A DNA stretch of 64,000 bases, from assembly GCA_000165345.1 (NCBI GenBank), contig CM000431.1:992001-1056000 (forward strand). Reading direction: 5' to 3'. The first letter of the stretch is position 1. Each line of letters begins with the position of its first letter. The translations under genes were made by a program, and so were the position numbers. The notes below the pieces were generated by a model. The model was not told where the DNA came from. It did no database searches and saw only the letters and a list, made by a program, of their open reading frames with translations. Shown here piece by piece: positions 1,817-53,934 of this stretch.

Positions 1817-1827
1817 TTTGGCGCCAA
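1817..1827. promoter_or_regulatory. E2F-like site TTTGGCGCCAA in the spacer between the CacyBP and eIF3k genes
   Basis: Palindromic GGCGCC core flanked by T and A. The same motif recurs in other intergenic spacers of this window. An E2F/DP-like GGCGCC/TTTCCCGC element is a reported over-represented upstream motif in Cryptosporidium. Confidence 0.35.
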
Positions 1828-4026: not shown

Positions 4027-4073
4027 TTTCCCGCCTATATGAAATAATTAGAGGCTACATAAAGTTGGCGGGC
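4027..4073. promoter_or_regulatory. inverted pair of E2F-like sites (TTTCCCGCC ... TTGGCGGGC) in the divergent promoter between the eIF3k and TMBIM genes
   Basis: TTTCCCGCC at 4027-4035 and its near reverse complement GGCGGGC at 4067-4073, about 30 bp apart; about 250 bp upstream of the ATG at 4322. Confidence 0.4.
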
Positions 4074-4169: not shown

Positions 4170-4205
<36 letters not shown>

Positions 4206-5071: not shown

Positions 5072-5246
5072 ATTTCTAAAATTTTTAGATTATTATTGTG
5101 GGAATATATGTAACAAGCTACCTGTAATTTTATTGGGATTGAACTTATTTAACTACTAATTATTTTTTATTTTTATTTTTTTTTTGTTATATTTGTTTGC
5201 TTTCTTCGATACTTTAAACCTGAACTATGAATTCAAAACAAAATCG

Positions 5247-5288
5247 TTCGGGCGCGCCAAAATTTACGTTGTGTGTTCCCGCCAATTT
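5247..5288. promoter_or_regulatory. E2F-like motif cluster (GGCGCGCCAAAA and TTCCCGCCAATTT) upstream of the Pro-repeat membrane protein gene
   Basis: Palindromic GGCGCGCC at 5251-5258 followed by CCAAAATTT, and TTCCCGCCAATTT at 5276-5288; 220-260 bp upstream of the ATG at 5510. Confidence 0.4.
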
Positions 5289-5509
5289 GCTTATTTTTGT
5301 TTTTTTTATTGTCCTTATGGGATTATTATAATTACTTCAATATCATCATTAAGAAGTTATTAATAAAAAAACAGTTTTCTAGGAAATTATTGGTGACTTT
5401 CAGAGGACCCAAATCAAGCAAGAAAATTTTGTTTTGTATTTGAGTATTGCTACTTTTAATTTTAAGTAGCTAATTAATATTTTTGTTGTTTATAGAAATA
5501 AAATGATAA

Positions 5510-7975: not shown

Positions 7976-8095
7976 ATATTGCTAAAAGTTAATGTAAAGA
8001 AATGTGTTAAATTGCTTTGATTATTATCCTCATTTATCTTAATTACTATATTCGCATAAACTGGTAACTATAAAAAGTGGCAAACATCTAAAATG

Positions 8096-8106
8096 TTGGC
8101 GGAAAC
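8096..8106. promoter_or_regulatory. E2F-like half site TTGGCGGAAAC upstream of the 8231 gene
   Basis: GGCGG followed by AAA; about 130 bp upstream of the ATG at 8231. Confidence 0.3.
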
Positions 8107-8230
8107 TATGTAATTTTAATTTATTCAAATTAATAAAAATAATTAAATTTAATTAATAAAAATAATAATAATGAAGTATCAAATCCACATTAACAAGAAT
8201 CTCTAAAGTTTTGATTTTGAGTGTATATAG

Positions 8231-12184: not shown

Positions 12185-12518
12185 ATTTGAATTAAATTAT
12201 CACAGTGTCTATAAAATGAATAAATTAGTAAATAAAAATACGTTTATATACCCCATATAATTAATTTTTATAATCAATTTTACTTAAACTATTTTAATTT
12301 AGACAGCGGGAAATTCCAATTTTTCTATTTAATATAAAAAAAAGGTAGAAAAAGTACCAGATTCTTAATAGTATCTCGGCAGGTGATAATATTCGTTTTT
12401 CGAATATTTATTATCTTTTTATAAAGAACTTTAATATCTTAATTTCATTTGATTATTAAAATAATAATCAGAAATATACTCAAAGATATAATATATTGGT
12501 TCTATATATACAGCAGAA

Positions 12519-13958
12519 ATGGCAAACTATAGTTTAAATTGCTGTTTAATAGCTTTAAGCGTTTCTTTGTTATTTGGGATAAACTTGTCCATATTAAACT
12601 TCACAGGTCCCTATGTGCTTTTGGATTATGAATTATGTGGGAAAGAAGGAACTCTCTTGGAGAGATCAAACTGTGAAAATGGATCTTATGCAATGTATAA
12701 GATGACTTTGGCATTCTTTACAGCATCTTTATTGAGTTGTTTTGCTGTTAAATATGTTGTAGGAAGAAGTCGTACTTTTGGACTTAAAGTGGCTTTAATT
12801 CCTTTTGCTGTTGGTGGAATTTTATCCAGTTTTGCCCCTAATTTCAAAATCTTTTGTATTGGAAGATTTATAAGTGGAGCCTCTTTAGGACTTTCAGCTG
12901 CTTCAGTTACATATATTTCCGAGATTTCACCAAAACATAGAAGAGGTTTGTATACAACTCTTTTTGGTCTATTTATCCCTGCAGGGCAAACAATTTCATA
13001 TATTTTGGGAGTATTTCTACCAATTATAAAGTATTTGGATGAATCTGATCTAGAATTTTATATTCTCTACTGTAGATTCCTTTTCTTAATTCCCACAATA
13101 ATCTCATTAATAATGATTATTGCAGTCCGCTTCTATTGTAAAGATGAAACTCCTTGTTTCTTATTATCAAAGGGAAGATTTTCAGAGGCTGAAGAGCTTC
13201 TTTATAAGATTTATCAAGATACTTCAGTTGTTTCAAGTGAAATGGAATCCTTATTAACAAGTAATAGGAGAAGCATTGAAGAGGATAAGATAAGTCAAAA
13301 TGTATCTTATTCAATGCTATTCAGCAGAAAGTACATTCTTCCAACATTTGTAACTCTTGTTATAACTGTTGGAGTAAGTGGAAGTGGAATTGGTATTTTC
13401 GCTCAAAAGATGAATTCATTAATTGAATCAGCCTCTGGTCTTCCTCAAGAAAAAGTTATTTATATTGTAATATTTACTTCAGCATTTGAGACAGTTTCTT
13501 GTTTCTTTGGAGGACATTTAATTGAGAAATTTGGAAGAAGAAATGTTGCAATTATTGGTTCTGCAACTAACTCACTATCTCTACTTCTTCTTGGATTATT
13601 TACAATTTTTAAGAACTACATTTCCAGCGTTGTTATTCCAGTTGTTTCAATTATTGTATTTTCTACCTTCCTTGCTTCATTCCAGCTAGCTCTTTCACCA
13701 GTATTATGGGCATATGTTCCAGAAGCACTTCCAACAGAAATCCGATCTACAGGAATGGGTCTATCGTCAATCTTAAATTGGTTGGTCAGTTTGATTTACA
13801 TACCTCTATCTTACATTATTTCGGATTTGAGTGTGTATGCTTTATCATCCATTTGTTGTGGTATTCTTTCCATTATTTGCTTCTTCTTTATGAAAGAAAC
13901 TAAGGGATGCTCAGTATCACCATATGAAGAAGATTCAGTTAAGAATCCAGATCTCTGA
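12519..13958 (+). CDS. MFS sugar-porter-family transporter (hexose-transporter-like), 479 aa, about 12 TM
   Basis: Sugar transporter signatures are present: GRFISGASLG (TM4 R-x-x-x-G), ETPCFLLSKGRFSEAEE (PESPR-x-L-x-KGR-x-EA-like motif after TM6), EALPTEIRSTGMGL (PE-x-xP-x-x-R-x-G after TM10) and a C-terminal KETKG (PETKG signature). Confidence 0.75.
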   Translation: MANYSLNCCLIALSVSLLFGINLSILNFTGPYVLLDYELCGKEGTLLERSNCENGSYAMYKMTLAFFTASLLSCFAVKYVVGRSRTFGLKVALIPFAVGGILSSFAPNFKIFCIGRFISGASLGLSAASVTYISEISPKHRRGLYTTLFGLFIPAGQTISYILGVFLPIIKYLDESDLEFYILYCRFLFLIPTIISLIMIIAVRFYCKDETPCFLLSKGRFSEAEELLYKIYQDTSVVSSEMESLLTSNRRSIEEDKISQNVSYSMLFSRKYILPTFVTLVITVGVSGSGIGIFAQKMNSLIESASGLPQEKVIYIVIFTSAFETVSCFFGGHLIEKFGRRNVAIIGSATNSLSLLLLGLFTIFKNYISSVVIPVVSIIVFSTFLASFQLALSPVLWAYVPEALPTEIRSTGMGLSSILNWLVSLIYIPLSYIISDLSVYALSSICCGILSIICFFFMKETKGCSVSPYEEDSVKNPDL

Positions 13959-14513
13959 GATGATCTGTTAGAACTTAATTTTTTCCTAAGGCCAACTTTG
14001 TAGAATAAGGAAGGGACTTAAAAGGAAGAAGAAGGGAGAAGTATTTATTCAGAGTGAATTGATTAGATTCCAACTTTTAATAAAATCCGTTAACACTTTG
14101 ATGTTGTGCCAAAGAAGTTCAATTCAGGATGAGGGGTAATGAATTTTTAGCCTTGGTTTCTACAGAGCTCACTTTTTCTTTAATATCAAGAAAATTGGAA
14201 AGTTTTCAGATTGTGTGTTGTGTTTTTTTTTAAATTTGAATAGGAGGGATTTTTTCTAAGAATTAACGACGATCCAAATATGATTTGGACTTATAAATTT
14301 TGAGTTATTACTCTACACAGTTCGTTGTGTTTGTTCATTCTTTTTAATTAGGAATACTACTACTTTTACTATTGCTAGAACATTATTGCTACTATTAGTT
14401 ATATTACTTATTCTCAGTAGTTATAGAATCCATATATTTTTTTGTTGTGGTGGCTCTTTTTTTTTTTCTTCGTTTTGTAATATTTTCTATTTTTGAGAGT
14501 TTTCTCGATTTCA

Positions 14514-15521
14514 CTATTTTTTCTCAGAATTTTTCCTTCTCATCCTTTCCATATGAAGCATTGCTAATTCAGAATTAATTGTTGGAACCTGTACTTGAGT
14601 ATTTGACTGAGATTGAAGTGAATCTTGACTTGAAAGAGTATCTTGAGGGGCTTGCGTAGTGCTAATACTGGTATTAGTAATAAAAGAATCGGAAGTTTGG
14701 TTAGAAACATTTGGAAGAATAGAATTAGTAGCTTCATGACTTGTACTGTTTGAATTGGTTGACATTCTATTAAAAGCTCTAAGTGTATTCTCAGACTCGA
14801 GAAATTCAATAATTTCGGAAGAAGCTGAAATAGAGTCTGAAAAAGATTTAGCAACATCCCAAACTTTGAGTTGTCTGCCTGTTCTAGGATCGACAACAGA
14901 AACATGTGGGAGCTTGGATATGTTATATAAATTCAACCATTCATTTCCTTCAGGAGTATTTGAACTTCTCTGCCAGAAAATGAAATGCTCTTGAATAAAT
15001 TCAATGATCAAAGAATCATTCCATATATCCCTGTTTAAAATCATGGAGGAGAACTCATTTGGGCTCTGAATATTAACTAAAATTAACTTTTTCTGAGACT
15101 TGGCCTTTTCTTTGGCAATTTCAAAAGGTTCACAAAACATAATAATTTGAGGTGGAGAAAACATTTGAGTAGAGAAATCATCAACTGGAGGAAGAAGATC
15201 ATCAGTGTGAACAACTCTTCCATTTTGCATGAATTGAGAAGAATTTAAGGCATTGTGGTCGTCAGGAATAAGTTGGTCATTAAAGGATGGTATTGGGGTT
15301 CTAACATCTTCTTCATCATGAAATAAATTATTTCCAGGATTGCTGTTATTTATATTGCTTGTGGTTTCATTACCTAAGTTCGAAAAATACTCATTAATTG
15401 CACTATTCATGTCTCCTGGATACATTTCCAAATACATCTTTGCAATTTGAGAGTCAGTGCAACCCGAAATATTAATAAAATTTTCAATTTCTTCGTTTGA
15501 AACCATATTTATATTGTCCAA
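14514..15521 (-). CDS. UBA-like plus UAS (thioredoxin-like) domain protein, FAF/UBXD7-family-like; no UBX domain detected
   Basis: N-terminal ISGCTDSQIAKMYLEMYPGDMNSAINEYF is UBA-like. The central FCEPFEIAKEKAKSQKKLILVNIQSPNEFSSMILNRDIWNDSLIIEFIQEHFIFWQ matches the UAS domain of FAF1/UBXD7/Ubx5 (KLLLVYLHSPxHxDTxxFCRxTLcxxxVIxFIxxNFLFW). Confidence 0.5.
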   Translation of the reverse strand: MDNINMVSNEEIENFINISGCTDSQIAKMYLEMYPGDMNSAINEYFSNLGNETTSNINNSNPGNNLFHDEEDVRTPIPSFNDQLIPDDHNALNSSQFMQNGRVVHTDDLLPPVDDFSTQMFSPPQIIMFCEPFEIAKEKAKSQKKLILVNIQSPNEFSSMILNRDIWNDSLIIEFIQEHFIFWQRSSNTPEGNEWLNLYNISKLPHVSVVDPRTGRQLKVWDVAKSFSDSISASSEIIEFLESENTLRAFNRMSTNSNSTSHEATNSILPNVSNQTSDSFITNTSISTTQAPQDTLSSQDSLQSQSNTQVQVPTINSELAMLHMERMRRKNSEKK

Positions 15522-15866
15522 TAAGATTAAATAATGATGAAATTATTGATCCAAATTAAGAATTACGTTGGAAATCAATTGTGTGTACTTTCTTTTTGAT
15601 TTTAAAGATGTAATTTAAATTTCATAATTAATTAACGAATTTTTTTTTCTTTTCTTAATACACCCAATTTTAAGCTAAAAAAAAATTTCCAGGTTGAAAA
15701 CTCTCAGGGTCGGAAAAATTTATTGTTTTGCTTATAAAGCGAGAGGGGGGAAATTGTAATAAATTAATCTAAAAATAATTAAACCAAAAATATTAAAGAA
15801 TAATATAATACAGTTTTTTTAAAAAAATTATACATTAAAATATTTATATATTTAAACTAGAATTTA

Positions 15867-18800
15867 TTAGTTTATTGATTGAAATTCAAAAGGTTGAAAT
15901 GAACGCCAATTTAAATTTGTATTTCTTCTGATATTAATTTTTTGAATAATATTCTGCAATTTAGTCCAACGGTAAGGACACAAAATCATAGGTTTTCCTC
16001 TAATCAAATGCTTATCCTCTTCTCCATATTCGTCCACATAAAGAGTAGAAAATTCACATGCCCTTGCACCATACAAAAATTGTTTATCCAATTCAATCCA
16101 ATTAAATAAATTGTTATTGGTTTCATTCTTTGTTGAAGTAATATCAATTCTAAATGATAGTATAATTGATGAAGAAACATGTAAGAAAAAAGATAATCCT
16201 TTTCCACATTTTGCAATATGATCTCTAATTGGTATTGACCTTAAAGATATATTTAAACCTGAACCAAATGGAATGGAGTATGATAATATATTTTTATTCC
16301 CAGTTTTTTCTGTTTCTCTTGAATAACAGTAGAAATAAGAATCCAAAATTGAAGATGACAAATTTGTACTAGTTTCAGTCTCATTACAACAACTATATTC
16401 CGTACATAATATACTTCCACATGAAATACAAATTAGTAAGTTATTAATATTATTAGAATATCTTCTACTCCAATGCTTTATTGGATTTGATAAAAGCTTG
16501 TTATAAAGATTGTGAAACATTTTAGGGGGTATTATTGTTGATTGATTAAAACCATTATATATAATAATATTTTGGCCACTTTCATTGATATTCAAAAACT
16601 TCTTTCCCAAACCTAGAAATGAACTCTTAAATATTTCAAACTCTTCAATGCTCAGACTTTTATAAAATGAATTAATATTACTATTAAATAGTGGTCTCTT
16701 TGAATTAACCATAATGTCATTAACAACTGTTACTTCCAAACAAGTTAAAGGAATTATTGCCTTCTTCTTTGAAATCAACTTTATGAAAAGGTTCTTTTCT
16801 AGCATTATAGTTAATAAAGAGTTCATCATTCCACTACTTTGGTTTATAAAGTTTTTATGTTTATCAATATCAGTATCATTATCAGTATTAATATTAAACT
16901 CTGTTAAAATTATCCAAGCAATCTCTAGTATATTTGTATTCATACAAAATCTACTAGAAATACATTGTAATAGTATAGAGATTTGTTCATCTAAGCTATT
17001 ATCCTCTTCATTTCCATTTATTCTTGTATTATTATTAACTGAATTTTCTATTTTCTTGTTTTTTTCTTTCATATAAATATTTTGAAATCTAACTATCAAC
17101 TTTAGCCAAACTATTATTCCAAGATTTACAATATCTTTAAGTTTTTTAATATCTCCAAGTTTAAATTCATCCATATTACACTCATCTTCTTGATTTTGTT
17201 TATACTTTTTAAATTTGTTCTTAGTATTTAAATAACTTGAATTTGTATTTAATATAAAATTCGGATATTTACTCAAATAAAATTCTCTCTTACTTTCATT
17301 TGATAATTTATTTATAGAATTCTTAACTTTGAAAGAATATATAATATCGCATTTATTCTTTTTCTCAGAAACTGAGATATCGCTATTTACTGGATTAATT
17401 TGGATTGGTAAAGTTCCAAAAATATTAACATTAATTCTTGAATCTGATATATTATTTATCTTCTGAGCTTTATACTCAATCTCTTCAGAACTTAAATCTA
17501 ATTTCTTATATAAGTGAAATCCATTTCCATAAATCAATTCCTGGAAAAAAGACATTGCCTCATTTTCATTTGATTGGTCTTCTTTCTGGTTATCATTTTC
17601 CTCATCAATATGAGATTTTCTGCATTTATTCAAATTTAATATAGCTTGGATTATTGGATTTCTTATTTTAGATACTTGTTCATCTTCATCCCATTCGGGG
17701 TTCCAAAATGTCCAAACAATTGAAAACACTTCCAAAACAAACATCATCAATAAAATATACATAACTCTCAAATCCCCTTGTTCTAAAGTCTCATAACCTT
17801 GACTTTCTCTTACAGAACTATCTCTAATACTATTATTTGAGTTATTATATTTATTGTTTGTTTTACTATAAAAATTATCAAAATGAGTGTCATTTTCTTT
17901 GACTTTTTGCTCCTTTAATGTTCTTGTACTATCAATCAGAATTATTAAATTTATAAGAATCTGAAATCTAGCTGAAGGCGATTGAAGCGAAATATAGTTC
18001 CAAATATCAATCTTATTTTCATCTCTAAGTATCTGAATTAAGTTAAAAATCATTGAAGTAGCCATGCACGGAAAATTATTAATAATACTTTTCAAAGATT
18101 TAATAACAATTTCATACATTAAATTTCTCGAAGAAGAAAATAAATTGGTTGAAGCAAATACACTCATATCATTTTCATAACATGAAATTGTATCAACTAT
18201 AATATTGTCACTTATAATCTTAGTTAAGAAACCTATTGGATTAATACTAGGAATTCCATTTATAGACAAATTAATGCTTGGAATATTGAAAGGAAGTAAA
18301 TTCTCAAATAAAGTCAATATTGAAAGAATTTGTTCAAGTATTGGAATACTTTCAACATCAATTTCTAAATTACCATTACAACTTCCTTCATAATAATCAC
18401 CAATCATATCACTTATTTCGTATTTTGTTTGGAGATCCAATAATAAATCCAAAATATCTATCAATTGATCATCTTTACAAGATTCAAAGTTATTTTGTAC
18501 TTCGTGACAAATATCCATCATTAATTCCTCATTCTTGAAGTACTTGAATGGAAGTATAATGTTGGAGAATGTATTGCAGTATGGGCATGTTAAGTTAGTT
18601 AAATGATAAATTTCTTTATTAATGTCGTATTTTCTAACTCTACCAGTAAATTTTGATCCAGTATTATCGGGTATAGAAGATAATATATGAACTGAGTTAT
18701 TAGAATTAGGCAAATTAAGCTCTTTAAAAGTCTCACCATTTTCTCTAATATTCATTTGTCTTACACTAACTCCTACTTTGTTTTTGTGGTAAGTTAATGG

Positions 18801-24503: not shown

Positions 24504-24713
24504 TAATTCATAAGCTCCTTCTTATCAAAATATTTCATTCTTAAATAAAGCAAAAAAAAAGAAAGCTTCCTATTATTATTACACACAATTTACACTAGCT
24601 TTAATCAACCCCACTTATTCCCGAATAACTTTTTATTTATTATATTTTTTTGATCGTGATGCTCGGCTTTTAAAGACATTTTGCGGTATTTAATTAGGTA
24701 CCGAATAAATTTG

Positions 24714-24738
24714 AGGCGCCAAAAACTTTGGCGGTCAG
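24714..24738. promoter_or_regulatory. paired E2F-like sites GGCGCCAAAAACTTTGGCGG in the divergent promoter between the UBR ligase and NSA2 genes
   Basis: GGCGCCAAAA at 24716-24725 and TTTGGCGG at 24727-24734; 230 bp upstream of the NSA2 ATG and 210 bp upstream of the UBR gene ATG, which is on the opposite strand. Confidence 0.4.
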
Positions 24739-25753: not shown

Positions 25754-26039
25754 TTCAATACTATGTAACAAGGTTTATTATTAGATGGCAATACTAAGGT
25801 AAATTCACAAAATATATGATTTAGTCATTTTAATTTATATTAATTCTCGGATTAATTTTTTTTTTAATTTTCATTTTTGACCGGTACCTTATAATTAATA
25901 AATTAAAAATACCGGCGAATTTAGCCCCACTAATAATCAGAAAATACTCCAAAAAAAAGACATTTTCTTTCTTTCAATCTAAATAGCTTTTACAATGAAA
26001 TAAAATTCAAAAATAAATCTTCTTCGTCAGTCAAAGAAC

Positions 26040-28234: not shown

Positions 28235-28570
28235 TTACTCTTTTAACAACTCCTTATATCTTTGATTTGGTATTAAGAATAAATTAAAATCATTATTGAC
28301 TGCACAACTTGGATTCTCCATTTTAATCATATTTCTCAAGTTTTCATCCCTAATAACAAATCTACCATCTTCTGTTGTCTCTATACTTTTCTTTAAACAT
28401 TCTTCGATAAATTTTTGTCCTAAAATTGAAACAATTGAAAACAAATTAGGGTCTGATGACTTTGCACCTTGCCTATTCATAATATACTCAACACACTCCT
28501 TTGGGAAGATTATGCTTTCTATCTTTGCCTCGTCTGATTCTGTATTTGCAGATTTTCCTGGTAGTGTCAT
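28235..28570 (-). CDS. TAF13-like histone-fold protein (TFIID subunit 13 / SPT3 N-terminal-like), 111 aa
   Basis: IIFPKECVEYIMNRQGAKSSDPNLFSIVSILGQKFIEECLKKSIETTEDGRFVIRDENLRNMIKMENP aligns with human TAF13 LFSKELRCMMYGFGDDQNPYTESVDILEDLVIEFITEMTHKAMSIGRQGRVQVEDIVFLIRKDP. Confidence 0.45.
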   Translation of the reverse strand: MTLPGKSANTESDEAKIESIIFPKECVEYIMNRQGAKSSDPNLFSIVSILGQKFIEECLKKSIETTEDGRFVIRDENLRNMIKMENPSCAVNNDFNLFLIPNQRYKELLKE

Positions 28571-28716
28571 TCTTCCTTTCTATTAAATTTATTATTGGCT
28601 AAAAACAAAATAATGAATAAATTCAGTAAAGCAAGTCTGACTATATGCAACAGTACCCACTAATATTTACCCTAAACCGTCATAAGTTAATCCTGTGTTC
28701 CATTCCTTAATATAAA

Positions 28717-28857
28717 TTTCCCGCAATTAAAATAATTAGTTCTTAGAAAATATAAATTAATTTGTTCAACATTTCCCGCATTACTCATTTTTTTTAAATT
28801 ATTAGAATTGCAAAAAATGTCACAGAAAATTGAGAATGGTGGCGCCAATGGCGGCAA
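28717..28857. promoter_or_regulatory. cluster of E2F-like sites (TTTCCCGCAA, TTTCCCGCA, GGTGGCGCCAATGGCGGCAA) in the divergent promoter between the TAF13-like and APC4-like genes
   Basis: TTTCCCGC at 28717-28724 and 28772-28779; GGCGCCAATGGCGG at 28841-28854; all within the 486-bp spacer 200-340 bp upstream of the ATG at 29057. Confidence 0.45.
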
Positions 28858-29056
28858 CTTACTAATATGAGGGGTGTATACTAGCAAACAACTAGTATAG
28901 GCTGCAAATGGGAATTGAAGTATGGTGTGTGGAATAAGTATTAAAAAGATAATAGCTTGTGAATAATTTCATTAAAAATTAAATGACATTGACTAAATTA
29001 TCAAGAAAAGTCACTATTTAAGCCCAATTAGGACTTGAAGTAATGAAAATTATAAG

Positions 29057-31648
29057 ATGCCATGTATACATTATAGGAAAGAAAATGTAAGGTCAGGATT
29101 AATACATCCAAATGGCAAAATTGTCGCATTGTTGGTTTCTTCTAATATATATACAATCGAGTTGTACAGAATTGATGATCTTGATAAACCAATTAAACTG
29201 CTTTGGTCTTTCCAGATTAAAGATAAGCCAAGTTGTATGGATTGGTGTAATAATGCAAAAAGTATCTGTATCGGCGATACAAATGGTTCTGTTACTATCA
29301 TTGATATCAATGGTCAAGTAAATAGCTATAATAACCTTCATTCACAAAATAATGAGATCAAGGAAATGAGAAACTTTATGTTATCAGGAGAACTCTTAAA
29401 TTTAAGAAAGGAAGGAATATTTCCAAGAAAATTGCAAGAACTAATAGTAATTGAACCTTATTCTTTAAGTATTAGAAACTCAAATGGTTCAGAAAACATT
29501 GGATTAGATGAGCTATTGAATGAATTCGTTTTAGATCAAGAAGCGGATGATCATTTTGATGATTCTCAAATTGATGGCACTACAAATCAACTTGAAATAT
29601 CAAAAAGTAAAGTAGAAATACTTCCTGAAGATTCTCAAAATGCAAATAGAGGTAACTATAAGGAAGCACCAAAGTTACTCCCAGAATATTTGAACCTGGA
29701 GGAAGATGTATGCTTAATTTTGACTATTGACTCAAAAAATAATATGATTTGTTCTATTGGTGGCCACACGCCTGTTTGGGTTTATAATCTACATGATCTT
29801 GGTCAAGGTAAAGATAGAATATTGAAAGATATTAGCATTTGTAAAAATCATATATTTCTAACTTATTTCCCTGAAAGTGAAAAAAAGGAAGACTTATTTA
29901 TAGAAATGATTGATATGAAACAATTTATCGACTCTTTTACAATAATATTCAATACATTTGGATTCTTGCAATATATGAGGCAGTTACTTAATTATCTTAA
30001 AAATGTTTTTCAACAGATATTGTCTGTTTGGCTTACTGGGATTAAGCCATTTAGACAGTTTCTAAGTAATGATAAAACGGTTAAAAAAAGCAATTTTTCA
30101 ATATTTTTACTTTCAATCATTTCAGGAGCTCCAATAAATATGTTTCAACCCGGTAACTCTTCTACAACTGAACTATCTATTACAATTGATCAGTTAGTTA
30201 TGTTTGGTCAGAATATTAATGACTCTATGGTTTATATTGAAAATACTATTTCACAAACTGTGGAGCCTGTGATGCAACAGATTTTTATTATTTGGAGTAT
30301 TATTCAAAAAACAGAGATTATTGAAGATCAGGAAACTAACAAAGTTTCAGCGCAGATTCATCTTTTGAAAGAGTTTAGCAAAACCTTAAATTACGAGACT
30401 GAGCAAGTTAAACCAATTGTTCATACTTTTTTGCATCTATTAAGCATAGCTAAGACCTATAAAGATGATGTAAAGAAAACTTCAACCGATCATTTTTTAC
30501 CACCAAAAATTATTTCTTCTGTAAATTCCAATATTATCGCCTCTACTTTCAAAATTAGTTCAGATTCATACTTTGTATTAAAGGATTTTATCAAGAGAAA
30601 ACATCTTTTCACTGATGAAAATGTGAAGGAAATGGATGATGAATCTCAAATAAGCCACTTTTTGAATGAAATAGAATTCAGAAAAATTGATAAGCTTCTA
30701 AATGAAGATGCAGAAGGTTGTTCTTTATCTTGTATTTTTAATTTGAGCTCTGCCATTGAAGAACTTTATAGACTAGCTGTCAAGAAAGTCTCAAAGAATT
30801 TCATTTGTAGCTTTTCTTCCTTAAAGGTGAATTTAGATCCAGGATATTTTTCCAAACAAAAAATCTTCAACTGTACAAATGTATCAATGGATGATTTCCA
30901 AAATATAGTCGTTAAGTTAATTCATCCAATACAAACTGAAAACAATAAATATGTTATTTCTAAGATTTGTATTAAGAATGATGAATTTTCAAGCCCTATT
31001 TCTACATTTGGAAACAATCATACGCTCGAGTATCCAACAGATTTTTCAAACGGAAATATTCAAATTGAATATTGTTCCAAGGCATTTTCACCAAGTATTA
31101 ACAAAATATCAATTGAATATACAATTGTGTGCCTTCCAATTCATTTACAGAACTTTAAGATTTCTAGTGTAGTATGGACCCACACTAATGAGCTTTTAAT
31201 GCTTGTTGATGATGGCTTAAAATCATCTCTTCTTTTTGGATTTAATTTAGATCTGATCAAATTACATGCTTTAACTCCAAGAACAAATAATTTATTGGAC
31301 GATTCTTTACAAAATAATAATCTTGCTCAAAATTCACTCAGACTAATGTTCAGTATAATTAATTCCAAAGCTGGACAGGACATCACCAAGTCTTGTGCTA
31401 AATCTTGTCTAAATCTCACCAACTTGTCAAATATATTTCATTACTCTCAAGACATCTCTCGAATTCATAGGCCTCAGAAGTTTAGAAACTTGTCAATGAA
31501 CATTTCTGGAACCAATGAAAGTAACTCCTCTATTGAATTCAATGAATCTCAAAAGGAATTTTGTACAAGTACAATGATTCTCGACTTTCACTCAAAATTT
31601 AACCAAGTAAGTTTAATCATCATTAACAAAATAACTTTTACTTTTTAA
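29057..31648 (+). CDS. anaphase-promoting complex subunit 4 (APC4)-like protein, 863 aa
   Basis: The N-terminal WD40 propeller pattern IHPNGKIVALLVSSNIYTIELYRI...LLWSF...PSCMDWCNNAKSICIGDTNGSVTIIDINGQ parallels human ANAPC4 VWSPKRDLIALANTAGEVLLHRL...RVWSF...VTCLAWRPDGKLLAFALADTKKIVLCDVE. The middle region FLQYMRQLLNYLKNVFQQILSVW...IKPFRQF parallels LLQYINLSLTCMCEAWEEILMQM...LTKFVQE. Length and architecture fit. Confidence 0.5.
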   Translation: MPCIHYRKENVRSGLIHPNGKIVALLVSSNIYTIELYRIDDLDKPIKLLWSFQIKDKPSCMDWCNNAKSICIGDTNGSVTIIDINGQVNSYNNLHSQNNEIKEMRNFMLSGELLNLRKEGIFPRKLQELIVIEPYSLSIRNSNGSENIGLDELLNEFVLDQEADDHFDDSQIDGTTNQLEISKSKVEILPEDSQNANRGNYKEAPKLLPEYLNLEEDVCLILTIDSKNNMICSIGGHTPVWVYNLHDLGQGKDRILKDISICKNHIFLTYFPESEKKEDLFIEMIDMKQFIDSFTIIFNTFGFLQYMRQLLNYLKNVFQQILSVWLTGIKPFRQFLSNDKTVKKSNFSIFLLSIISGAPINMFQPGNSSTTELSITIDQLVMFGQNINDSMVYIENTISQTVEPVMQQIFIIWSIIQKTEIIEDQETNKVSAQIHLLKEFSKTLNYETEQVKPIVHTFLHLLSIAKTYKDDVKKTSTDHFLPPKIISSVNSNIIASTFKISSDSYFVLKDFIKRKHLFTDENVKEMDDESQISHFLNEIEFRKIDKLLNEDAEGCSLSCIFNLSSAIEELYRLAVKKVSKNFICSFSSLKVNLDPGYFSKQKIFNCTNVSMDDFQNIVVKLIHPIQTENNKYVISKICIKNDEFSSPISTFGNNHTLEYPTDFSNGNIQIEYCSKAFSPSINKISIEYTIVCLPIHLQNFKISSVVWTHTNELLMLVDDGLKSSLLFGFNLDLIKLHALTPRTNNLLDDSLQNNNLAQNSLRLMFSIINSKAGQDITKSCAKSCLNLTNLSNIFHYSQDISRIHRPQKFRNLSMNISGTNESNSSIEFNESQKEFCTSTMILDFHSKFNQVSLIIINKITFTF

Positions 31649-32050: not shown

Positions 32051-32056
32051 GAAAAA
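32051..32056 (-). terminator. RNA polymerase III terminator (T6 run) immediately 3' of tRNA-Met
   Basis: On the minus strand the tRNA discriminator base is followed directly by TTTTTT. Confidence 0.6.
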
Positions 32057-32130
32057 AGGAGCTGACGGGACTCGAACCCGTGACCTCGAGGGTATGAATC
32101 TCGCGCACTAGCCAACTATGCGACAGCTCC
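32057..32130 (-). tRNA. tRNA-Met (anticodon CAU), elongator type
   Basis: Minus-strand sequence GGAGCTG-TC-GCAT-AGTTGGCTA-GTGC-G-CGAGA-TTCATAC-CCTCG-AGGTC-ACGGG-TTCGAGT-CCCGT-CAGCTCC-T. It has a 7-bp acceptor stem, U8, A14, G18G19, a D stem GCAT/GTGC, a T-arm ACGGG/CCCGT with T54-T55-C56 loop GTTCGAGT, and an anticodon loop TTCATAC (U33, CAT, A37). G1:C72 and T54 argue against initiator identity. There is one A31-C39 mismatch at the loop-proximal pair. Confidence 0.7.
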
Positions 32131-32494
32131 TCATACTTGTCCTGGTGATAGTTCGAGGTTAAATTACTTAAAATTAAATTGAAAAAAAACTTAATGCAAA
32201 TCTTGGATCGTCTCTCCAATATAATTTGCCATTCACAAAACCAGTACAAAGATCAAACCAATAAATACGCGCAAATACTTATACAAATATTATAAAACCT
32301 AGATAATAGTAGGGCTCTAAAGTAGAATAAGCAATATTCATCAAAATAAATGTTCAAAATGCGAACGAGTAGGTCCATTTGGATAGTTAAAAAAATTTGT
32401 TAAAAATGTGAAAATTGCTTTAATAGGAAGTTCAAAAGTGAAAATAGGCATTTAATAATTAAGGATGCCTCAGTTCATATATAAAGGAAATTAA

Positions 32495-37021: not shown

Positions 37022-37030
37022 GGCGCCAAT
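37022..37030. promoter_or_regulatory. E2F-like site GGCGCCAAT about 230 bp upstream of the P5-ATPase start
   Basis: GGCGCCAA core in the 635-bp spacer between the ATPase 5' end and the nucleolin-like gene 3' end. Confidence 0.3.
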
Positions 37031-37425: not shown

Positions 37426-39561
37426 TTAGTCACTATCATCAAATGTGGTACTTGTGCCCTGGAAGGTTGTAGATGAGTTATTCTTTGCAGGCCTGTTATT
37501 AGCACCGCCACGTCCTCCACCTGACCCTGCACCTCTTCCACCACCACCATTCTTTCCTAAGGCAATTTCAATAGTTACCTCTCTTCCATTCATTGAAGTA
37601 CCTGATAACTTGAGAGCATTTTGAATTTGTTCATCATTTTCAAATTCAACCATAGCGAAGCCTCTCATTTTTCCAGTATCAGAATATCTAGGAATAGAGA
37701 CTCTTTTGACTACACCACAACCATTGAAAAATGATTTAACTGATTCATCATCGCTTGAAAAAGGAATGTTTCTAACGATGACTGAAGGACCATATCCTCC
37801 GCTTGATAGACTTCCTGGTTGAGGCTTGTCTGCTGACATGTTAATCCTTAACATTCTACCTTTATATTCTGTTTGATTCCATTGGATTGCTGACTTGGCT
37901 CCTTCTTCTTGTTCGAAAGTAATAAAAGCGCATCCCTTATCAGAAAGAACTGATACTCTTTCAATAGATCCGCATTCTTCAAACAGACCTCTAATCTCCT
38001 CCTCAGTGCAAGAATATGGAAGGTTGCCACAATATACTTCTCTAGAGTCTTTGTTATTTGTATTCTGTCTCTTTCTTGGTTGACTGTTATCATCATTTCC
38101 TTGATAAGAACGCTTTGGAGTATCATTCTTTGTAATTTTGTTTTCCTTGTTATTGTTTAGCTCGCTTTCTGCTTTTCTCTTACTCTTATTCATTTCAACT
38201 TCTGATTCTGATGAAGAATTTGATGATTTCACAGATTTCGATACTTTTTTGGCTTTTTCATTATCGCTTTCAGAGTCTGATGAGCTGGATGAATCAGAAG
38301 AAGAGCTATCAGACATTGCTTTCTTTGCCGTAGTTGATGCTGCTGCTTTGGTATTCTTCTTTGGTTTCTCGTCTTCTGAAGATGAAGAATCAGAAGAGCT
38401 TGAAGAATCTGAAGAACTATTTGATATGTTCTTCTTCATTGGTGTTGCTGCTTTAGCATTCTTCTTTGGTTGTTCATCTTCAGAAGAAGAGTCTGAATCA
38501 GAAGATGAAGATGAAGAGGAGCTATTTGAAATATTCTTCTTCATTGGTGTTGCTGCTTTAGAATTCTTCTTTGGTTGTTCGTCCTCAGAAGATGAGGAAG
38601 AGTCTGAAGATGAGGAAGAGGAAGAGCTATCAGACATTGCTTTCTTTGCTGGAGTCGATGCTGCTGCTTTAGAATTCTTCTTTGGTTGTTCATCCTCAGA
38701 AGATGAAGAAGAGTCTGATGATGAAGAACTATCAGACATTGCTTTCTTTGCTGGAATCGATGCTGCTGCTTTGGTATTCTTCTTTGGTTGTTCGTCCTCA
38801 GAAGATGAAGAAGAGTCTGATGATGAGGAAGAGCTATCAGACACTGCCTTTTTTGCAGAAGCTTGTGTTGTTACCTTAATATTCTTCTTTGGTTGTTCGT
38901 CCTCAGAAGATGAGGAAGAGTCTGATGATGAAGAACTATCAGACATTGCTTTCTTTGCTGGAGTTGGAATTACTGCCTTAGTATTCTTCTTTGATTTCTC
39001 ATCCTCTGAAGATGAAGAATCAGAAGAGCTTGAAGAATCTGAGGAACTATTTGATATGTTCTTCTTCATTGGTGTTGCTGCTTTAGCATTCTTCTTTGGT
39101 TGTTCATCTTCAGAAGAAGAGTCTGAATCAGAAGATGAAGATGATGAAGAGCTGTTTGAGATACTCTTCTTCATCGGTGCTGCTGCTTTGGCATTCTTCT
39201 TTGGTTGTTCATCTTCAGAAGAAGAATCTGAGTCAGAAGATGAAGATGAGCTATTTGAGATGTTCTTCTTCACTGGTGCTGCTGCTTTGGTATTCTTCTT
39301 TGGTTGTTCATCCTCAGAAGATGAGGAAGAGTCTGATGATGAAGAACTATCAGACATTGCTTTCTTTGCTGGAGTTGGAATTACTGCCTTAGTATTCTTC
39401 TTTGATTTCTCATCCTCTGAAGATGAAGAAGAACCTGAAGAAGAATCAGTAGAAGATTCTGGAATCTTAGTATTATTCATTTCAGACTTCTTAGAACCCT
39501 TTTTATTATCGTTACTCTTATTCTTAATACTTGTTAGCTTCTTTTCAGCCTTCTTTACCAT
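37426..39561 (-). CDS. nucleolin-like nucleolar RNA-binding protein (NSR1/GAR2-like): Ser/acidic repeat N-terminus, two RRMs, C-terminal GAR (RGG) domain
   Basis: About 11 degenerate repeats of poly-Ser followed by SSEDEQPKKN[AT]KAA[AT]P[MV]KKNISN. RRM1 is VYCGNLPYSCTEEEIRGLFEECGSIERVSVLSDKGCAFITFEQEEGA (RNP2 and RNP1). RRM2 is VIVRNIPFSSDDESVKSFFNGCGVVKRVSIPRYSDTGKMRGFAMVEFEN. The C-terminal GGGGRGAGSGGGRGGANN is a GAR domain. Confidence 0.8.
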   Translation of the reverse strand: MVKKAEKKLTSIKNKSNDNKKGSKKSEMNNTKIPESSTDSSSGSSSSSEDEKSKKNTKAVIPTPAKKAMSDSSSSSDSSSSSEDEQPKKNTKAAAPVKKNISNSSSSSSDSDSSSEDEQPKKNAKAAAPMKKSISNSSSSSSSSDSDSSSEDEQPKKNAKAATPMKKNISNSSSDSSSSSDSSSSEDEKSKKNTKAVIPTPAKKAMSDSSSSSDSSSSSEDEQPKKNIKVTTQASAKKAVSDSSSSSSDSSSSSEDEQPKKNTKAAASIPAKKAMSDSSSSSDSSSSSEDEQPKKNSKAAASTPAKKAMSDSSSSSSSSDSSSSSEDEQPKKNSKAATPMKKNISNSSSSSSSSDSDSSSEDEQPKKNAKAATPMKKNISNSSSDSSSSSDSSSSEDEKPKKNTKAAASTTAKKAMSDSSSSDSSSSSDSESDNEKAKKVSKSVKSSNSSSESEVEMNKSKRKAESELNNNKENKITKNDTPKRSYQGNDDNSQPRKRQNTNNKDSREVYCGNLPYSCTEEEIRGLFEECGSIERVSVLSDKGCAFITFEQEEGAKSAIQWNQTEYKGRMLRINMSADKPQPGSLSSGGYGPSVIVRNIPFSSDDESVKSFFNGCGVVKRVSIPRYSDTGKMRGFAMVEFENDEQIQNALKLSGTSMNGREVTIEIALGKNGGGGRGAGSGGGRGGANNRPAKNNSSTTFQGTSTTFDDSD
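37950..39470 (-). repeat. in-frame coding tandem repeats (about 110-130 nt units) encoding serine-rich/acidic nucleolin N-terminal repeats
   Basis: The SSEDEQPKKN...KAA.P.KKNISNSSSS block is reiterated about 11 times with variation. The complementary strand gives a long spurious ORF (38138-39667) with matching periodicity. Confidence 0.8.
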
Positions 39562-40121
39562 TACAAAGCTAGAAGTATCAGAATCATCACTTGAAGTATC
39601 TGTTGAGTTTTCAACAATTTTTGTTTCAATTGGTTTTTTGGCGATTTTAACTGATTTTGATTTCTAAAAATAATTAATTAGATAAATGAAACTGTATTAT
39701 ATAAAGATGATTGACTTACCGACATGGTGATAGTACACTAAAGTTTAAATATTAATATTATTTTTTTGTTTTAATCAATATTGTCAAGCCTGACACTATT
39801 TTTAGTCTTTTTTGACTTTATTTTTTTTTTTTTATCGGCCATTAAATATATTATCTCACCCTAAAGACAGTACGAGACGGATACATTGCCGGTATATTTT
39901 TTTTTTAAATTATTAAAATATTTTTGAAACCTTAAATATAAAATTTTAGATTTATGTAAATTTTGACATTTGGCGAACTTAATTTTAAATTAATGAACTT
40001 TTTATTATCAAAAAAAATTTTAAATTAAAGGACTATATATTCTAGTTTCTTACATATACTGTAATTAGCTTTAATATACTAGAAAGAAAATCATATAAGA
40101 ATACAATATTGGAATTGAAAA

Positions 40122-45137: not shown

Positions 45138-45488
45138 TTTATTTCTTTATTTTTCATTGATTTATATGGGTTCATGCACCCTTTTTTCCCACAGTTTTTT
45201 TTTCCTTCACACGTGATAATTTTTTTAAAAATTATACGGTACCGGTAAATATATAAATGCCGGTATCGTGATTATAAGAAAAAATGTCAAATTTAATAAT
45301 TTCATATATGAGAAAAAGTTATTGAGAGAAATTCAACAGGCATAAACAAATTTTTTCAAAAGTAATTATAAATAAATATTTTGAGCTTTACTCTAGCGAA
45401 AACCTAAATTCGCAAATTTAAGTACTTGATATCTCTACCAGTCGTGCTAGATATATTAAAGTAGTGATAAGCGTCGTTCATTAGTATT

Positions 45489-53084: not shown

Positions 53085-53934
53085 CTATCTTCCACTTAAT
53101 GCTGGGTATAAGATTTCTCGGAAAAACAAAACTGACTTCTTATATTGAAAATAACCTGCGGAATAGATCGTAACTATGATTTGAATTAAGATATCAATAA
53201 CTCTTACTCCAAAAATTAATTCCGCCTTTAACTCTATATATTGGTACCCTTCTATTAAGCTTAAATTAATGGAAAATGAAGTGCTGTCTACTAGGCGCCA
53301 ATCCTCTAAAGAATAGAAAAACATTCAAATTTTAACAATATGAAATGATAATGCAATTAATTGCACGTAAATTCAATCACTATAATATTGAATCTTTTTT
53401 TCATTCTGATTTTTATATATTGAATCTAAGCTGCTATTAAATGTTTATCTCGTAACTACCATCGAAATTGAGCTACTTTGTCACTTTTGTATCTGAAGAA
53501 TGTACGAATTTGATCAAGTGGGCGGATTTAATTGTTCAATTATTTTTTTAAATATTTATTTGTTCTAGAGAGTGCGATTTTATTTGCATTAAATAAGTGA
53601 ATTCAGCTTCATTGTTCTGAAATACTCATTTTTTGTAGTACTACTAGATATCAATTACAAATGGTTGTGTTAGAAGCAGTAAATTTGAAATAATACATTA
53701 AGTTGAGAAACAGCACTTAGTTTTTTCAATTCTAGAGGTTTTATAGAAATTTACGATTTACTACGGTTCCCATTAAGCTAGAATTGGTTTTTTAAGAGAA
53801 AAAAACATTGTGAAAATTTTTCAATGAATGAGTGAATTCATTGGTATCATTTCATTTTTAACACTCATTAATACATGAAATATGTAGCTGTTATTATTTA
53901 AAGAAAATTTACTTGAATACACTTTTTACATCTA

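Follow-up and report, generated by a model that had tools for sequence, protein, structure and literature searches.

E2F-like boxes in the shared promoter of TAF10-family and APC4-like genes of Cryptosporidium parvum belong to a published upstream motif family

Introduction

Of the motifs over-represented upstream of genes in Cryptosporidium parvum, the E2F-like motif is the most abundant (PMC4117751). As 5'-TGGCGCCA-3', [C/G]GCGC[G/C] or GGCGGG, it is over-represented upstream in 163 of 200 expression clusters (2,379 genes), and among the clusters that carry it, peaks occur at all seven time points (PMC3734150). Bankier et al. 2003 first noticed the motif, according to Oberstaller et al. 2013 (PMC3734150). 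Mullapudi et al. 2007 (PMC1779779) described a GGCG-core motif upstream of glycolytic genes without using the term E2F, and glycolytic and ribosomal genes are both among the carriers (PMC3734150, PMC1779779). Sporozoite ATAC-seq peaks are dominated by E2F motifs, with AP2 motifs reported absent (Xiao et al. 2025, bioRxiv 10.1101/2025.01.17.633476). Among apicomplexans, E2F/DP genes are retained in Cryptosporidium only; those of C. parvum (E2F, cgd1_1560 and cgd6_1430; DP, cgd7_3650 and cgd8_1850) all lie on chromosomes other than the one studied here (PMC12246861), and no pRb orthologue has been reported in this species (PMC3734150). According to a 2025 review, most Cryptosporidium regulatory components are without functional validation (PMC12246861), and in the literature searched we found no direct binding of E2F/DP to any Cryptosporidium site.

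E2F/DP sites of animals and plants conform to TTTSSCGC (TTTCCCGCC and TTTGGCGGG in Arabidopsis). Classical E2F targets often have tandem or paired sites. The boxes described below resemble the animal and plant sites in their exact consensus (TTTCCCGC twice), symmetric GC core, T-rich flank and promoter-proximal position. The C. parvum motif differs in lying upstream of ∼ 70% of assayed genes instead of a cell-cycle regulon, in the lack of a reported pRb orthologue, and in a flank that often reads ATTGGCGCC instead of TTTGGCGC; its recognition by parasite E2F/DP is putative. The motifs bound by ApiAP2 proteins (TGCATGCA, the G-box G.GGGG and CACACA) are likewise short and over-represented upstream, but have other sequences and belong to another protein family. 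ApiAP2 proteins are known to bind both the G-box and the CACACA type, the G.GGGG family being bound by ApiAP2 cgd8_810 in PBM (PMC3734150); the published [A/C]AACTA motif has no known binding factor.

The window throughout this report is the whole 64-kb stretch of DNA (64,000 nucleotides) that was analysed. It belongs to C. parvum chromosome 3 (cgd3_4120/cgd3_4130), with exact protein matches to Iowa II chromosome 3. We focus on one divergent spacer, whose boxes are ordinary copies of the already published E2F-like motif and not a new element. Organism and sequences are the same as in the published family (5'-TGGCGCCA-3', [C/G]GCGC[G/C], GGCGGG / TTTCCCGCC; PMC3734150), as are the common traits of upstream non-coding location, occurrence on either strand, multiple copies and frequent placement in bidirectional promoters. 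There is no essential difference, the focal boxes being individual members. Two locus-level additions were not found in those papers: orthologous conservation of individual sites out to C. canis, and a conserved tandem pair in a GCAAAAAATGTCA - E2F x2 - GAGGGG module.

Results

The divergent spacer and its flanking genes

The focal spacer is divergent and 486 bp long (28571-29056), bounded on one side by the ATG of a - strand ORF and on the other by that of a + strand ORF.

28235..28570, - strand: 111-aa TAF10-family gene (TFIID 23-30 kDa histone-fold), cgd3_4120-type, Pfam PF03540
29057..31648, + strand: 863-aa APC4-like gene, XP_626957.1, a WD40 propeller with a long helical-bundle insert (label cgd3_4130 inferred from locus tag cpbgf_3004130)

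The first of these had been called TAF13-like in the first-pass annotation. Its only family match is TAF10 (PF03540, E 6.5e-7), at 29.9 bits above the gathering cut-off of 28, and the source annotation reads 'TFIID 23-30kDa subunit family'. TAF13 (TFIID 18 kDa) was rejected for this ORF, as no TAF13 profile matched. The naming of the second gene as APC4-like held up, with sequence searches remaining below threshold. Pfam searches, with the single sequence and orthologue by orthologue, gave only sub-threshold matches to the ANAPC4_WD40 and ANAPC4 families (PF12894, best E 0.0015, in 7 of 11 orthologues; PF12896, E 0.17), and a profile search of the protein against PDB sequences returned only a chance WD40 match (E 0.93). 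The AF2 model (pLDDT 64.8, pTM 0.67) consists of a propeller with helices at 294-582. When it was submitted to Foldseek, the top 16 PDB matches were all APC4 (E 6e-11 to 6e-9, ∼ 750-820 alignment columns), including human chain I, 5bpw/5bpt and yeast 8a3t_Q, with TM 0.42-0.53 normalised on target length; the first non-APC4 fold followed at E 2e-4. The modelled structure confirms a predicted APC4 fold for the downstream gene.

Direct reading and pattern searches placed TTTCCCGC twice in the spacer, both on the + strand, and the composite TGGCGCCAATGGCGGCAA at 28840-28857. The slightly longer GGTGGCGCCAATGGCGGCAA (28838-28857) consists of the palindrome TGGCGCCA and GGCGGCAA, the latter reading TTGCCGCC on the - strand. 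Compared with the literature consensus for C. parvum (TGGCGCCA / [A/T][C/G]GCGC[G/C][A/T]; PMC3734150), all boxes are of the E2F/DP type: those at 28717 and 28772 are exact TTTCCCGC (TTTSSCGC), that at 28840 is exact TGGCGCCA, and 28850-57 supplies TTGCCGCC on the - strand. Three E2F-like sites had been proposed for this spacer; the boxes are present as described, but the E2F-type sites number four.

28717..28724, + strand: E2F-like site a, TTTCCCGC (canonical TTTSSCGC), 148 bp from the TAF10-like ATG
28772..28779, + strand: E2F-like site b, TTTCCCGC, 55 bp downstream of site a; the same 10-mer ATTTCCCGCA occurs in a and b
28806..28830, + strand: conserved block AATTGCAAAAAATGTCACAGAAAAT, no known motif matched, just upstream of the E2F pair (c/d); single occurrence in the window
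28840..28847, no strand assigned: E2F-like site c, palindrome TGGCGCCA, identical to the published C. parvum E2F consensus (PMC3734150)
28850..28857, - strand: E2F-like site d, GGCGGCAA (TTGCCGCC on the - strand), 200 bp from the APC4-like ATG
28869..28875, + strand: G-box-like GAGGGGT, downstream of the E2F pair (c/d), of the published G.GGGG family (PMC3734150)
28889..28904, + strand: conserved block CAACTAGTATAGGCTG, which includes the published 'unknown' [A/C]AACTA motif
28924..28932, + strand: conserved GGTGTGTGG, a CACACA / AP2_2-type motif on the other strand (motif family from PMC4117751)

The cores of sites c and d lie 9-10 bp apart, about one helical turn. Other pairs in the window start 13, 25, 34 and 37 bp apart; the one-turn spacing is therefore peculiar to the focal promoter within the window. 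The APC4-proximal half is ordered as GCAAAAAATGTCA, ∼ 20 bp, the two E2F sites, ∼ 12 bp, GAGGGG, CAACTAGTATAGGCTG and GGTGTGTGG, so that conserved G-box-like and CACACA-like boxes adjoin the E2F pair. The search for structured RNA or RNA families in or near the spacer gave only a chance snoRNA-like match (E 0.34) within the TAF10 coding sequence, and a whole-window Rfam scan found nothing but one tRNA.

Distribution of the motif across the window

The motif family had been described as almost exclusively intergenic. This is true of the strict motif: 15 of the 16 TTSSCGC occurrences in the window fall within the non-coding 18.7% (binomial p = 1.6e-10), where 0.72 (order-1 Markov) or 1.61 (order-2) would be expected, while coding sequence holds one against ∼ 2.1 expected (analytic Markov). 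Dinucleotide shuffles predict 0.32 copies of TTTCCCGC and 0.16 of GGCGCCAA for the window, which contains four and seven. All eight TTTSSCGC sites are intergenic, exact canonical TTTCCCGC and TTTGGCGC forms among them; a looser definition of the family gives 23 intergenic and 9 coding sites. Since intergenic DNA has a lower GC content (25.1%) than coding DNA (31.1%), composition runs counter to this enrichment. A raw intergenic-vs-coding k-mer contrast was uninformative, being swamped by AT-rich words, and was replaced by a Markov-corrected expectation within intergenic DNA. In the resulting de novo ranking the top words that are not of low complexity are GGCGCC, TTGGCG, TGGCGC, TGGCGG, GGCGGG and TCCCGC. 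The family is thus enriched in upstream non-coding DNA against composition and depleted in coding sequence. Equal frequencies in the two after correction for composition had been named beforehand as evidence against the first-pass interpretation; in the window they are unequal, with an intergenic excess.

Chance, or a compositional artefact in which short GC-rich words merely seem to cluster, might be suspected for motifs of only 7-8 bp that were picked by eye. We discount it entirely. The excess is 10- to 40-fold over the dinucleotide-shuffle and Markov expectations, the enrichment is found in the more AT-rich fraction, and orthologous positions are conserved at saturating divergence (see below).

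Every further site listed in the first-pass annotation is present, within 1-3 bp of the position given there; the confirmed positions are 1818-1827, 3259, 4028, 4065, 5251, 5276, 8096, 24715, 24728, 37022, 53294 and 62582. Sites at 6696, 12306 (exact TTTCCCGC, - strand), 37056, 49248 and 58172 were absent from that list. Individual instances are as follows.

1818..1827, no strand assigned: perfect 10-bp palindrome TTGGCGCCAA, 146 bp upstream of a CS-domain gene; C. canis has TTTGGCGCCAAA 156 bp upstream of the orthologue
4028..4072, no strand assigned: TTTCCCGCC (4028) and TTGGCGGG (4065), upstream of a Bax-inhibitor gene; ATTTTCCCGCCTATA retained in C. canis
5251..5285, no strand assigned: GGCGCGCCAA (5251) and TTCCCGCCAA (5276); GTGTTCCCGCCA retained in C. 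canis
8096..8102, + strand: TTGGCGG, 129 bp upstream of a HIRA-like gene; C. canis has ATGTTGGCGGAA 138 bp upstream
12306..12313, - strand: TTTCCCGC, 207 bp upstream of a sugar-transporter gene; ACAGCGGGAA retained in C. canis
24715..24734, no strand assigned: GGCGCCAA and TTGGCGG, in the divergent spacer between a UBR-box gene and an S8e-domain gene
37022..37029, + strand: GGCGCCAA, 232 bp upstream of a P-type ATPase gene
53294..53301, + strand: GGCGCCAA, 228 bp upstream of the 1085-aa ORF 49809-53066 of an insulinase-like gene array (this ORF has no Pfam match of its own)

At least one site is present in 14 of the 17 promoter-bearing spacers, 77-533 bp from the ATG, and the five convergent spacers contain none of the 23 sites (P = 0.02). 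The promoters concerned include those of Bax-inhibitor, sugar-transporter, P-type ATPase, ribosomal S8e-domain, RRM, UBR and insulinase-like peptidase genes. Promoter-bearing spacers add up to ∼ 10.1 kb and contain 23 merged sites, from which a Poisson model predicts ∼ 1.1 merged sites for 486 bp; the focal spacer has three (P ∼ 0.1, uncorrected for multiple testing). Its site density has P ∼ 0.03-0.1 before correction for 17 spacers. The focal cluster is not exceptional among window promoters.

These counts bear on the proposal that a cell-cycle gene carrying a cell-cycle element is internally consistent, an argument left with little information by the presence of the motif in 14 of 17 promoter-bearing spacers. 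We regard a dedicated S/M-phase E2F module timing APC4 expression, as E2F does for animal and plant cell-cycle genes, as distinctly unlikely. The downstream gene does have the APC4 fold, its spacer is the richest in the window (four strict sites), the c/d pair and the flanking module are unusually well conserved, and E2F and DP transcripts are reported in the literature to have two maxima, one early in asexual development and one late in the asexual stage. However, the motif occurs at window promoters whatever the gene function, the density of the focal sites is not significantly above promoter background, and the cyclin promoter in the window has one weak site only (GCGGCAA, 6696). Glycolytic and ribosomal genes are published carriers of the motif too, and a pRb orthologue has not been reported in C. 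parvum. A lack of association with S/M-phase expression had likewise been named as evidence against the idea; because published clusters peak at any of the seven time points, this is close to what is seen for the family as a whole. The motif does not mark a cell-cycle-specific regulon in the metazoan or plant sense, and cell-cycle control of APC4 by the focal boxes is not specifically supported. Of the overall first-pass interpretation, the assignment to Cryptosporidium, the E2F/DP-consensus boxes, the divergent promoter, the confinement to non-coding DNA and the APC4-like gene stand; TAF13 and the cell-cycle specificity do not.

Conservation among Cryptosporidium species

Within the region syntenic with window positions 1-15,900, all seven promoter spacers that bear sites in C. 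parvum also bear them in C. canis, at similar distances from the ATG and with mostly conserved flanks; the sole site-less promoter spacer is site-less in both species. Outside the focal spacer, seven sites of the window have positional counterparts in C. canis. Identity between the two is 85% (60/71) for motif columns and 47% for other spacer columns (Fisher p = 1.6e-10), a contrast somewhat inflated by the global alignments being themselves optimised and biased the opposite way by one misaligned true counterpart (12306). At the cross-species syntenic locus, site density is 4.4/kb in the promoter spacer, 0.8/kb in convergent spacers and 0.25/kb in coding sequence.

The tandem pair c/d is kept in six further taxa (C. 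meleagridis, chipmunk genotype I, C. ubiquitum, SRR18693150, SRR31860986 and C. canis), where its cores are 9-10 bp apart and the APC4-like ATG follows ∼ 205-225 bp downstream. C. parvum and the first five of these have GCGG[C/G/T]AA at -206 to -223 with a GCGC core 9-10 bp upstream, and C. canis has TTGGCGGGAA from -207, 10 bp downstream of a TTGGCGCC site. The GGCGC core of site c is retained in five of the six pair-bearing taxa and reads AGCGC in SRR18693150. At least two pair-bearing taxa are saturated at synonymous sites, four-fold-site identity to C. parvum being 0.33 for SRR31860986 and 0.36 for C. canis. Conservation is weaker at sites a and b than at c and d. Site a is conserved in C. 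meleagridis, has one flank change in chipmunk genotype I (AATTCCCGC) and is lost in C. ubiquitum and SRR18693150. Site b is conserved in C. meleagridis and chipmunk genotype I; its aligned position in C. ubiquitum holds ACCGCCAA instead, an opposite-strand E2F-like site, and in C. canis TTGGCGCCAA occurs at a comparable distance. In C. felis, GCGGCAA is found at -265. In distant species the footprint is weaker: a GGCGCC pair at ∼ -400 is all that is seen in C. bovis, C. andersoni has only the near-match GGCGCT, and in the C. ryanae focal spacer E2F-like sites are not above chance.

The neighbouring boxes are conserved as well. In the block at 28806..28830, the best 20-column segment has 16 invariant columns, identity to C. 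ubiquitum and SRR18693150 is 0.93-0.96 (vs. 0.67-0.68 at four-fold sites), and its GCAAAAATGTCA is found in C. canis too. GAGGGGT is present in all five aligned species and SRR31860986, with GGAGGGG in C. felis, and CAACTAGTATAGGCTG has 0.94-1.00 identity out to C. ubiquitum. The core of the module (upstream block, E2F pair and G-box) is thus preserved across Cryptosporidium lineages with saturated synonymous sites. Together, the focal pair in six further taxa and the seven of seven C. canis spacers show individual sites, the tandem pair included, to be under what the alignments mark as purifying selection across Cryptosporidium species, and the focal sites appear functional.

The alignments also bear on whether the composite could be a GC-flanked CCAAT box of the NF-Y type (GGCGCCAATGGCGG) rather than an E2F pair. 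CCAAT does occur at 28845-28849, five of the seven GGCGCCAA sites in the window run on as CCAAT, CCAAT-binding factors are encoded by C. parvum, and a CAAT-box motif family has been published (PMC3734150, PMC12246861). At this position, however, the pentamer is found only in C. parvum and is replaced in five compared taxa, by CCATT (C. meleagridis), GCTGC (chipmunk genotype I), GCTTA (C. ubiquitum) and CCTTT (C. canis and SRR31860986), whereas both GC cores and their spacing are retained. We rejected the CCAAT box, which is extremely improbable.

Discussion

As a discovery the focal boxes are of small value: no cis element of Cryptosporidium is better documented than the E2F-like motif, and the focal spacer is one of well over a thousand carrier promoters. 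An E2F-like motif upstream of a cell-cycle gene in C. parvum is no evidence of cell-cycle regulation. Conservation site by site out to C. canis nevertheless argues that individual copies of the motif are functional, beyond the statistical enrichment of the family.

The focal spacer is, with good probability, the shared promoter of the TAF10-family and APC4-like genes, its boxes being ordinary E2F-like elements, the commonest upstream motif of the genome. From the literature and general E2F biology, we suggest that parasite E2F/DP winged-helix heterodimers would bind the boxes, which may lie in a nucleosome-depleted region at the 5' ends of both transcription units. Their role in asexual-stage transcription would be a general one, to define or activate promoters, and not that of a cell-cycle-specific switch. 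Timing would likely come from the adjoining conserved boxes GAGGGG, CAACTA and GTGTGTG, which belong to other published motif families.

A more specific reading of the APC4-proximal half is that its conserved order represents a fixed 'grammar' of an E2F-dimer pair and ApiAP2 boxes that confers cell-cycle timing on APC4. We consider this unlikely; if true, the module would be a tractable first model promoter for the cooperation of E2F/DP with AP2 factors in the sole apicomplexan E2F/DP system. With its conserved tandem pair beside G-box and CACACA-type boxes, the 486-bp spacer is a convenient bidirectional promoter for E2F/DP binding and mutagenesis work.

The boxes might instead form a functional promoter element that is not read by E2F/DP, but by another GC-box factor or, in an AT-rich genome, through DNA structure or nucleosome exclusion, their E2F likeness being coincidental. 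Several observations fit: no binding experiment was found in the literature searched, the C. parvum variant favours (A/T)TTGGCGCC and GCGCCAAT above the canonical TTTSSCGC with its full T-run, intergenic CGCCAAT occurs seven times against 0.4 expected, and the CpG observed/expected ratio is higher in spacers (0.76) than in coding sequence (0.40). We nonetheless consider it very unlikely, and prefer recognition by E2F/DP. The exact canonical forms TTTCCCGC and TTTGGCGC exist among the intergenic TTTSSCGC sites, and the palindromic GGCGCC core suits heterodimeric E2F-DP recognition (structural basis cited in PMC3734150). The sole apicomplexan genus to retain E2F/DP is also the genus whose promoters the motif dominates (PMC4117751, PMC12246861), and the conservation of the boxes is base-specific, beyond general GC content.

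Locus and flanking genes

The window is ∼30% GC and 81% open reading frame, essentially without introns. Three of its ORF products, including both that flank the divergent spacer at 28571-29056, match C. parvum proteins exactly, which places it on C. parvum chromosome 3. Coding DNA was defined as the longest non-overlapping ATG ORFs, and the resulting gene order agrees with gene calls for the syntenic regions of C. canis and other species. The 863-aa ORF is XP_626957.1 (C. parvum Iowa II); a closely related gene model in strain BGF has the locus tag cpbgf_3004130, from which we infer that cgd3_4130 is the older name of the gene. The ORFs whose ATGs bound the spacer, and the four E2F-like boxes within it (sites a to d), are:

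28235-28570 (-), 111-aa ORF
29057-31648 (+), 863-aa ORF
28717-28724, site a, TTTCCCGC, by sequence reading and pattern search
28772-28779, site b, TTTCCCGC, by sequence reading and pattern search
28840-28847, site c, TGGCGCCA, by sequence reading and pattern search
28850-28857, site d, GGCGGCAA, which is TTGCCGCC on the other strand

The first-pass annotation had described the upstream neighbour as TAF13-like. Its Pfam match is to TAF10 (PF03540, E 6.5e-7, at a score over the gathering threshold), not to TAF13, and database names also point to TAF10. The APC4-like designation of the downstream gene has held up. Sequence matches to the 863-aa protein are all sub-threshold (the best, among orthologues, is ANAPC4_WD40 at E 0.0015). 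The AlphaFold model, for which 11 species were aligned (pLDDT 64.8, pTM 0.67), consists of a β-propeller with a long helical insert; in a Foldseek search of the PDB its top 16 matches are all APC4 chains (E 6e-11 to 6e-9 over ∼750–820 alignment columns), with the next fold at E 2e-4. These structural matches support the assignment.

In GenBank the C. felis and C. tyzzeri (TRY52472.1) orthologues of the APC4-like protein are named 'Transcription initiation factor TFIID subunit', apparently because the annotation was carried over from the adjoining TAF10 gene or the two gene models were merged; no minus-strand TAF10 gene is called at the C. felis locus. Other C. parvum and C. hominis models of the APC4-like protein are 869–872 aa long, compared with 863 here. 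The annotated start at 29057 is preceded by an ATG in another frame, at 29043, which opens a 15-codon uORF (29043-29090 region) extending over the main start codon. Across five species, the 28 bp in front of the main ATG are highly conserved.

Motif enrichment and restriction to promoters

Three motif sites had been reported in the spacer; they are present, but resolve into the four boxes. The other positions listed are all real (within 1–3 bp), although a few sites were overlooked, such as the exact TTTCCCGC at 12306. Occurrence of the motif exceeds chance: compared with dinucleotide shuffles, TTTCCCGC is found 4 times (0.32 expected) and GGCGCCAA 7 times (0.16 expected). The claim that the family is almost exclusively intergenic is borne out by the strict pattern TTSSCGC, for which 15 of 16 window sites fall in the 18.7% of the sequence that is intergenic (binomial p = 1.6e-10). 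Markov models predict 0.72 (order 1) or 1.61 (order 2) intergenic sites, and about 2.1 coding sites where one is observed. Composition opposes this enrichment, since intergenic DNA is poorer in GC than coding DNA (25.1% and 31.1%). An unbiased ranking of intergenic words against Markov expectation is led among non-low-complexity words by GGCGCC, TTGGCG, TGGCGC, TGGCGG, GGCGGG and TCCCGC.

A broader definition of the family gives 23 merged intergenic sites; all five convergent (3'-3') spacers are free of them (P = 0.02). At least one site lies in 14 of the 17 promoter-bearing spacers, 77–533 bp from the nearest 5'-facing ATG. At the syntenic loci of eight taxa, strict sites occur at 4.4 per kb in the promoter spacer, 0.8 in convergent spacers and 0.25 in coding sequence.

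For the window as a whole, the observed/expected ratio of CpG is 0.40 within coding sequence and 0.76 between genes, and that of GpC 0.97 and 1.31; CpG is strongly depleted inside coding sequence. The intergenic excess stems in part from the E2F-like motif itself.

Conservation of the boxes

The syntenic locus was taken from ten other Cryptosporidium taxa, with identity to C. parvum at four-fold degenerate sites as the neutral benchmark (chipmunk genotype I, 0.75; C. ubiquitum, 0.67; SRR18693150, 0.68; SRR31860986, 0.33, and C. canis, 0.36, both saturated). Sites c and d form a core pair, GGCGC followed 9–10 bp on by GCGG[C/G/T]AA, at -206 to -223 from the APC4 ATG. It is kept in C. parvum, C. 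meleagridis, chipmunk genotype I, C. ubiquitum, SRR18693150 (where the first core is AGCGC) and SRR31860986. In C. canis TTGGCGCC is likewise followed by TTGGCGGGAA, which lies 10 bp downstream, at -207. A partial pair remains in C. felis and C. bovis; for C. ryanae and C. andersoni the syntenic loci gave nothing convincing. Conservation of sites a and b is limited to the closest species; near the position of site b, C. ubiquitum (on the opposite strand) and C. canis have an E2F-like site. The c/d pair sits in a conserved module with GCAAAAAATGTCA upstream and GAGGGG (G-box), CAACTAGTATAGGCTG and GGTGTGTGG downstream. Identity to C. ubiquitum is 0.79 in the APC4-proximal half of the spacer, which exceeds the neutral 0.67, and 0.48 in the TAF10-proximal half.

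A wider comparison took in a 17-kb stretch of C. canis that is syntenic with window positions 1-17,000. All seven site-bearing C. parvum promoter spacers are also site-bearing in C. canis at similar distances from the ATG, mostly with identical flanks (e.g. GTGTTCCCGCCA, ATGTTGGCGGAA, ACAGCGGGAA, TTTCCCGCCTATA), and the single site-free promoter spacer is site-free in both. In pairwise spacer alignments 85% of motif columns (60/71) are identical, compared with 47% of all others (Fisher p = 1.6e-10). The boxes match the consensus, are restricted to promoters and are under selection.

The most conserved stretch of the spacer is the block AATTGCAAAAAATGTCACAGAAAAT (28806-28830), 0.93–0.96 identical to C. 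ubiquitum and SRR18693150; its GCAAAAATGTCA is kept in C. canis. It occurs once in the window and matched no nameable motif family. A CCAAT-box reading is ruled out, since the CCAAT that arises by overlap in C. parvum is not conserved in orthologous spacers.

Proposed recognition by E2F/DP and the cell-cycle question

The feature belongs to a published, already known motif family of C. parvum, whose boxes resemble canonical E2F sites at the sequence level. The E2F motif (5'-TGGCGCCA-3', [C/G]GCGC[G/C], GGCGGG) was found in 163 of 200 expression clusters, comprising 2,379 genes (PMC3734150), and is the commonest over-represented upstream motif (PMC3734150; PMC4117751). It also stands out most among the motifs of sporozoite ATAC-seq regulatory peaks, a majority of these peaks being bidirectional promoters (bioRxiv 10.1101/2025.01.17.633476), and Cryptosporidium alone among apicomplexan genera retains E2F/DP (PMC12246861). 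On these three grounds, the boxes would be read by parasite E2F/DP heterodimers and would mark an accessible region from which both divergent genes are transcribed. We infer the trans-factor, since the literature yielded no direct E2F/DP binding experiment. What this locus adds is that individual sites are conserved between orthologues where divergence is saturating, that two sites stand in tandem about one helical turn apart, and that E2F-like sites and a G-box form a conserved module.

The pairing first proposed, a cell-cycle gene with a cell-cycle element, is true as stated but uninformative in this genome, because the motif precedes genes of many functions and the expression peak of clusters that bear it can fall at any of seven time points (PMC3734150). 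Within the window it precedes CS-domain, CSN8/PSMD8-family, Bax inhibitor-1, HIRA-like, sugar transporter, UBR-box, S8e-domain, P-type ATPase and insulinase-like peptidase genes, and the cyclin gene has one weak site only; published motif-bearing clusters include ribosomal and glycolytic genes. The site count of the spacer does not significantly exceed the local promoter background (P ∼0.03–0.1 before correction for 17 spacers). Membership of a cell-cycle-specific regulon failed against both the window genes and the published clusters, and the cell-cycle interpretation is not specifically supported. It seems unlikely that the c/d pair and G-box form a specific E2F + ApiAP2 promoter grammar timing APC4 expression. 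The observation is confirmed, its earlier interpretation is supported in part, and the biology is ordinary for C. parvum.

Other elements in the window

Intergenic DNA is also enriched in a second GC-containing word family, CCGGTA/GGTACC/CGGTACC (TACCGGTA-like): GGTACC has 8 counts over both strands (4 palindromic sites; 0.85 expected) and CGGTACC 4 (0.08 expected). Words of this type lie at:

25881-25888, 25910-25915, 45238-45265 and 6654-6659
39889-39894, 24697-24702 and 53243-53248

They are found chiefly in two of three internal promoter spacers without E2F-like sites (the two preceding the genes that start at 26040 and 45137) and may act as an alternative promoter element.

Five large paralogous ORFs stand head to tail in an array (41268-62091, -) and correspond to cgd3_4170/4180-type 'secreted insulinase-like peptidases'. 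Pfam insulinase/Peptidase_M16 domains are found in four of the five; the 1085-aa ORF at 49809-53066 had no Pfam match. Most inter-paralogue spacers have one E2F-like site each (49248, 53294, 58172, 62582), and spacer 45138-45488 has CCGGTA-type words in its place.

The 846-bp 'convergent' spacer that separates the APC4-like gene from the P-type ATPase gene holds a tRNA-Met (CAT) gene (32056-32131, -; Rfam 59.5 bits; ARAGORN), with no E2F-like site beside it. The divergent spacer 2856-4321 is unusually long (1,466 bp; 1,338 bp in C. canis, fetched locus 2033-3370) and has three conserved E2F-like sites divided between its two ends. It contains no ORF of at least 90 aa and no Rfam match, and could hide an unannotated small gene or non-coding transcript. 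A 509-aa TTG-initiated ORF (38138-39667, +) runs antisense to an RRM-protein gene (37426-39561, -), where the GC content of the window is highest (0.38) and its AT skew strongest (-0.26). This ORF is probably an artefact that arises from composition or low complexity in the sense gene.
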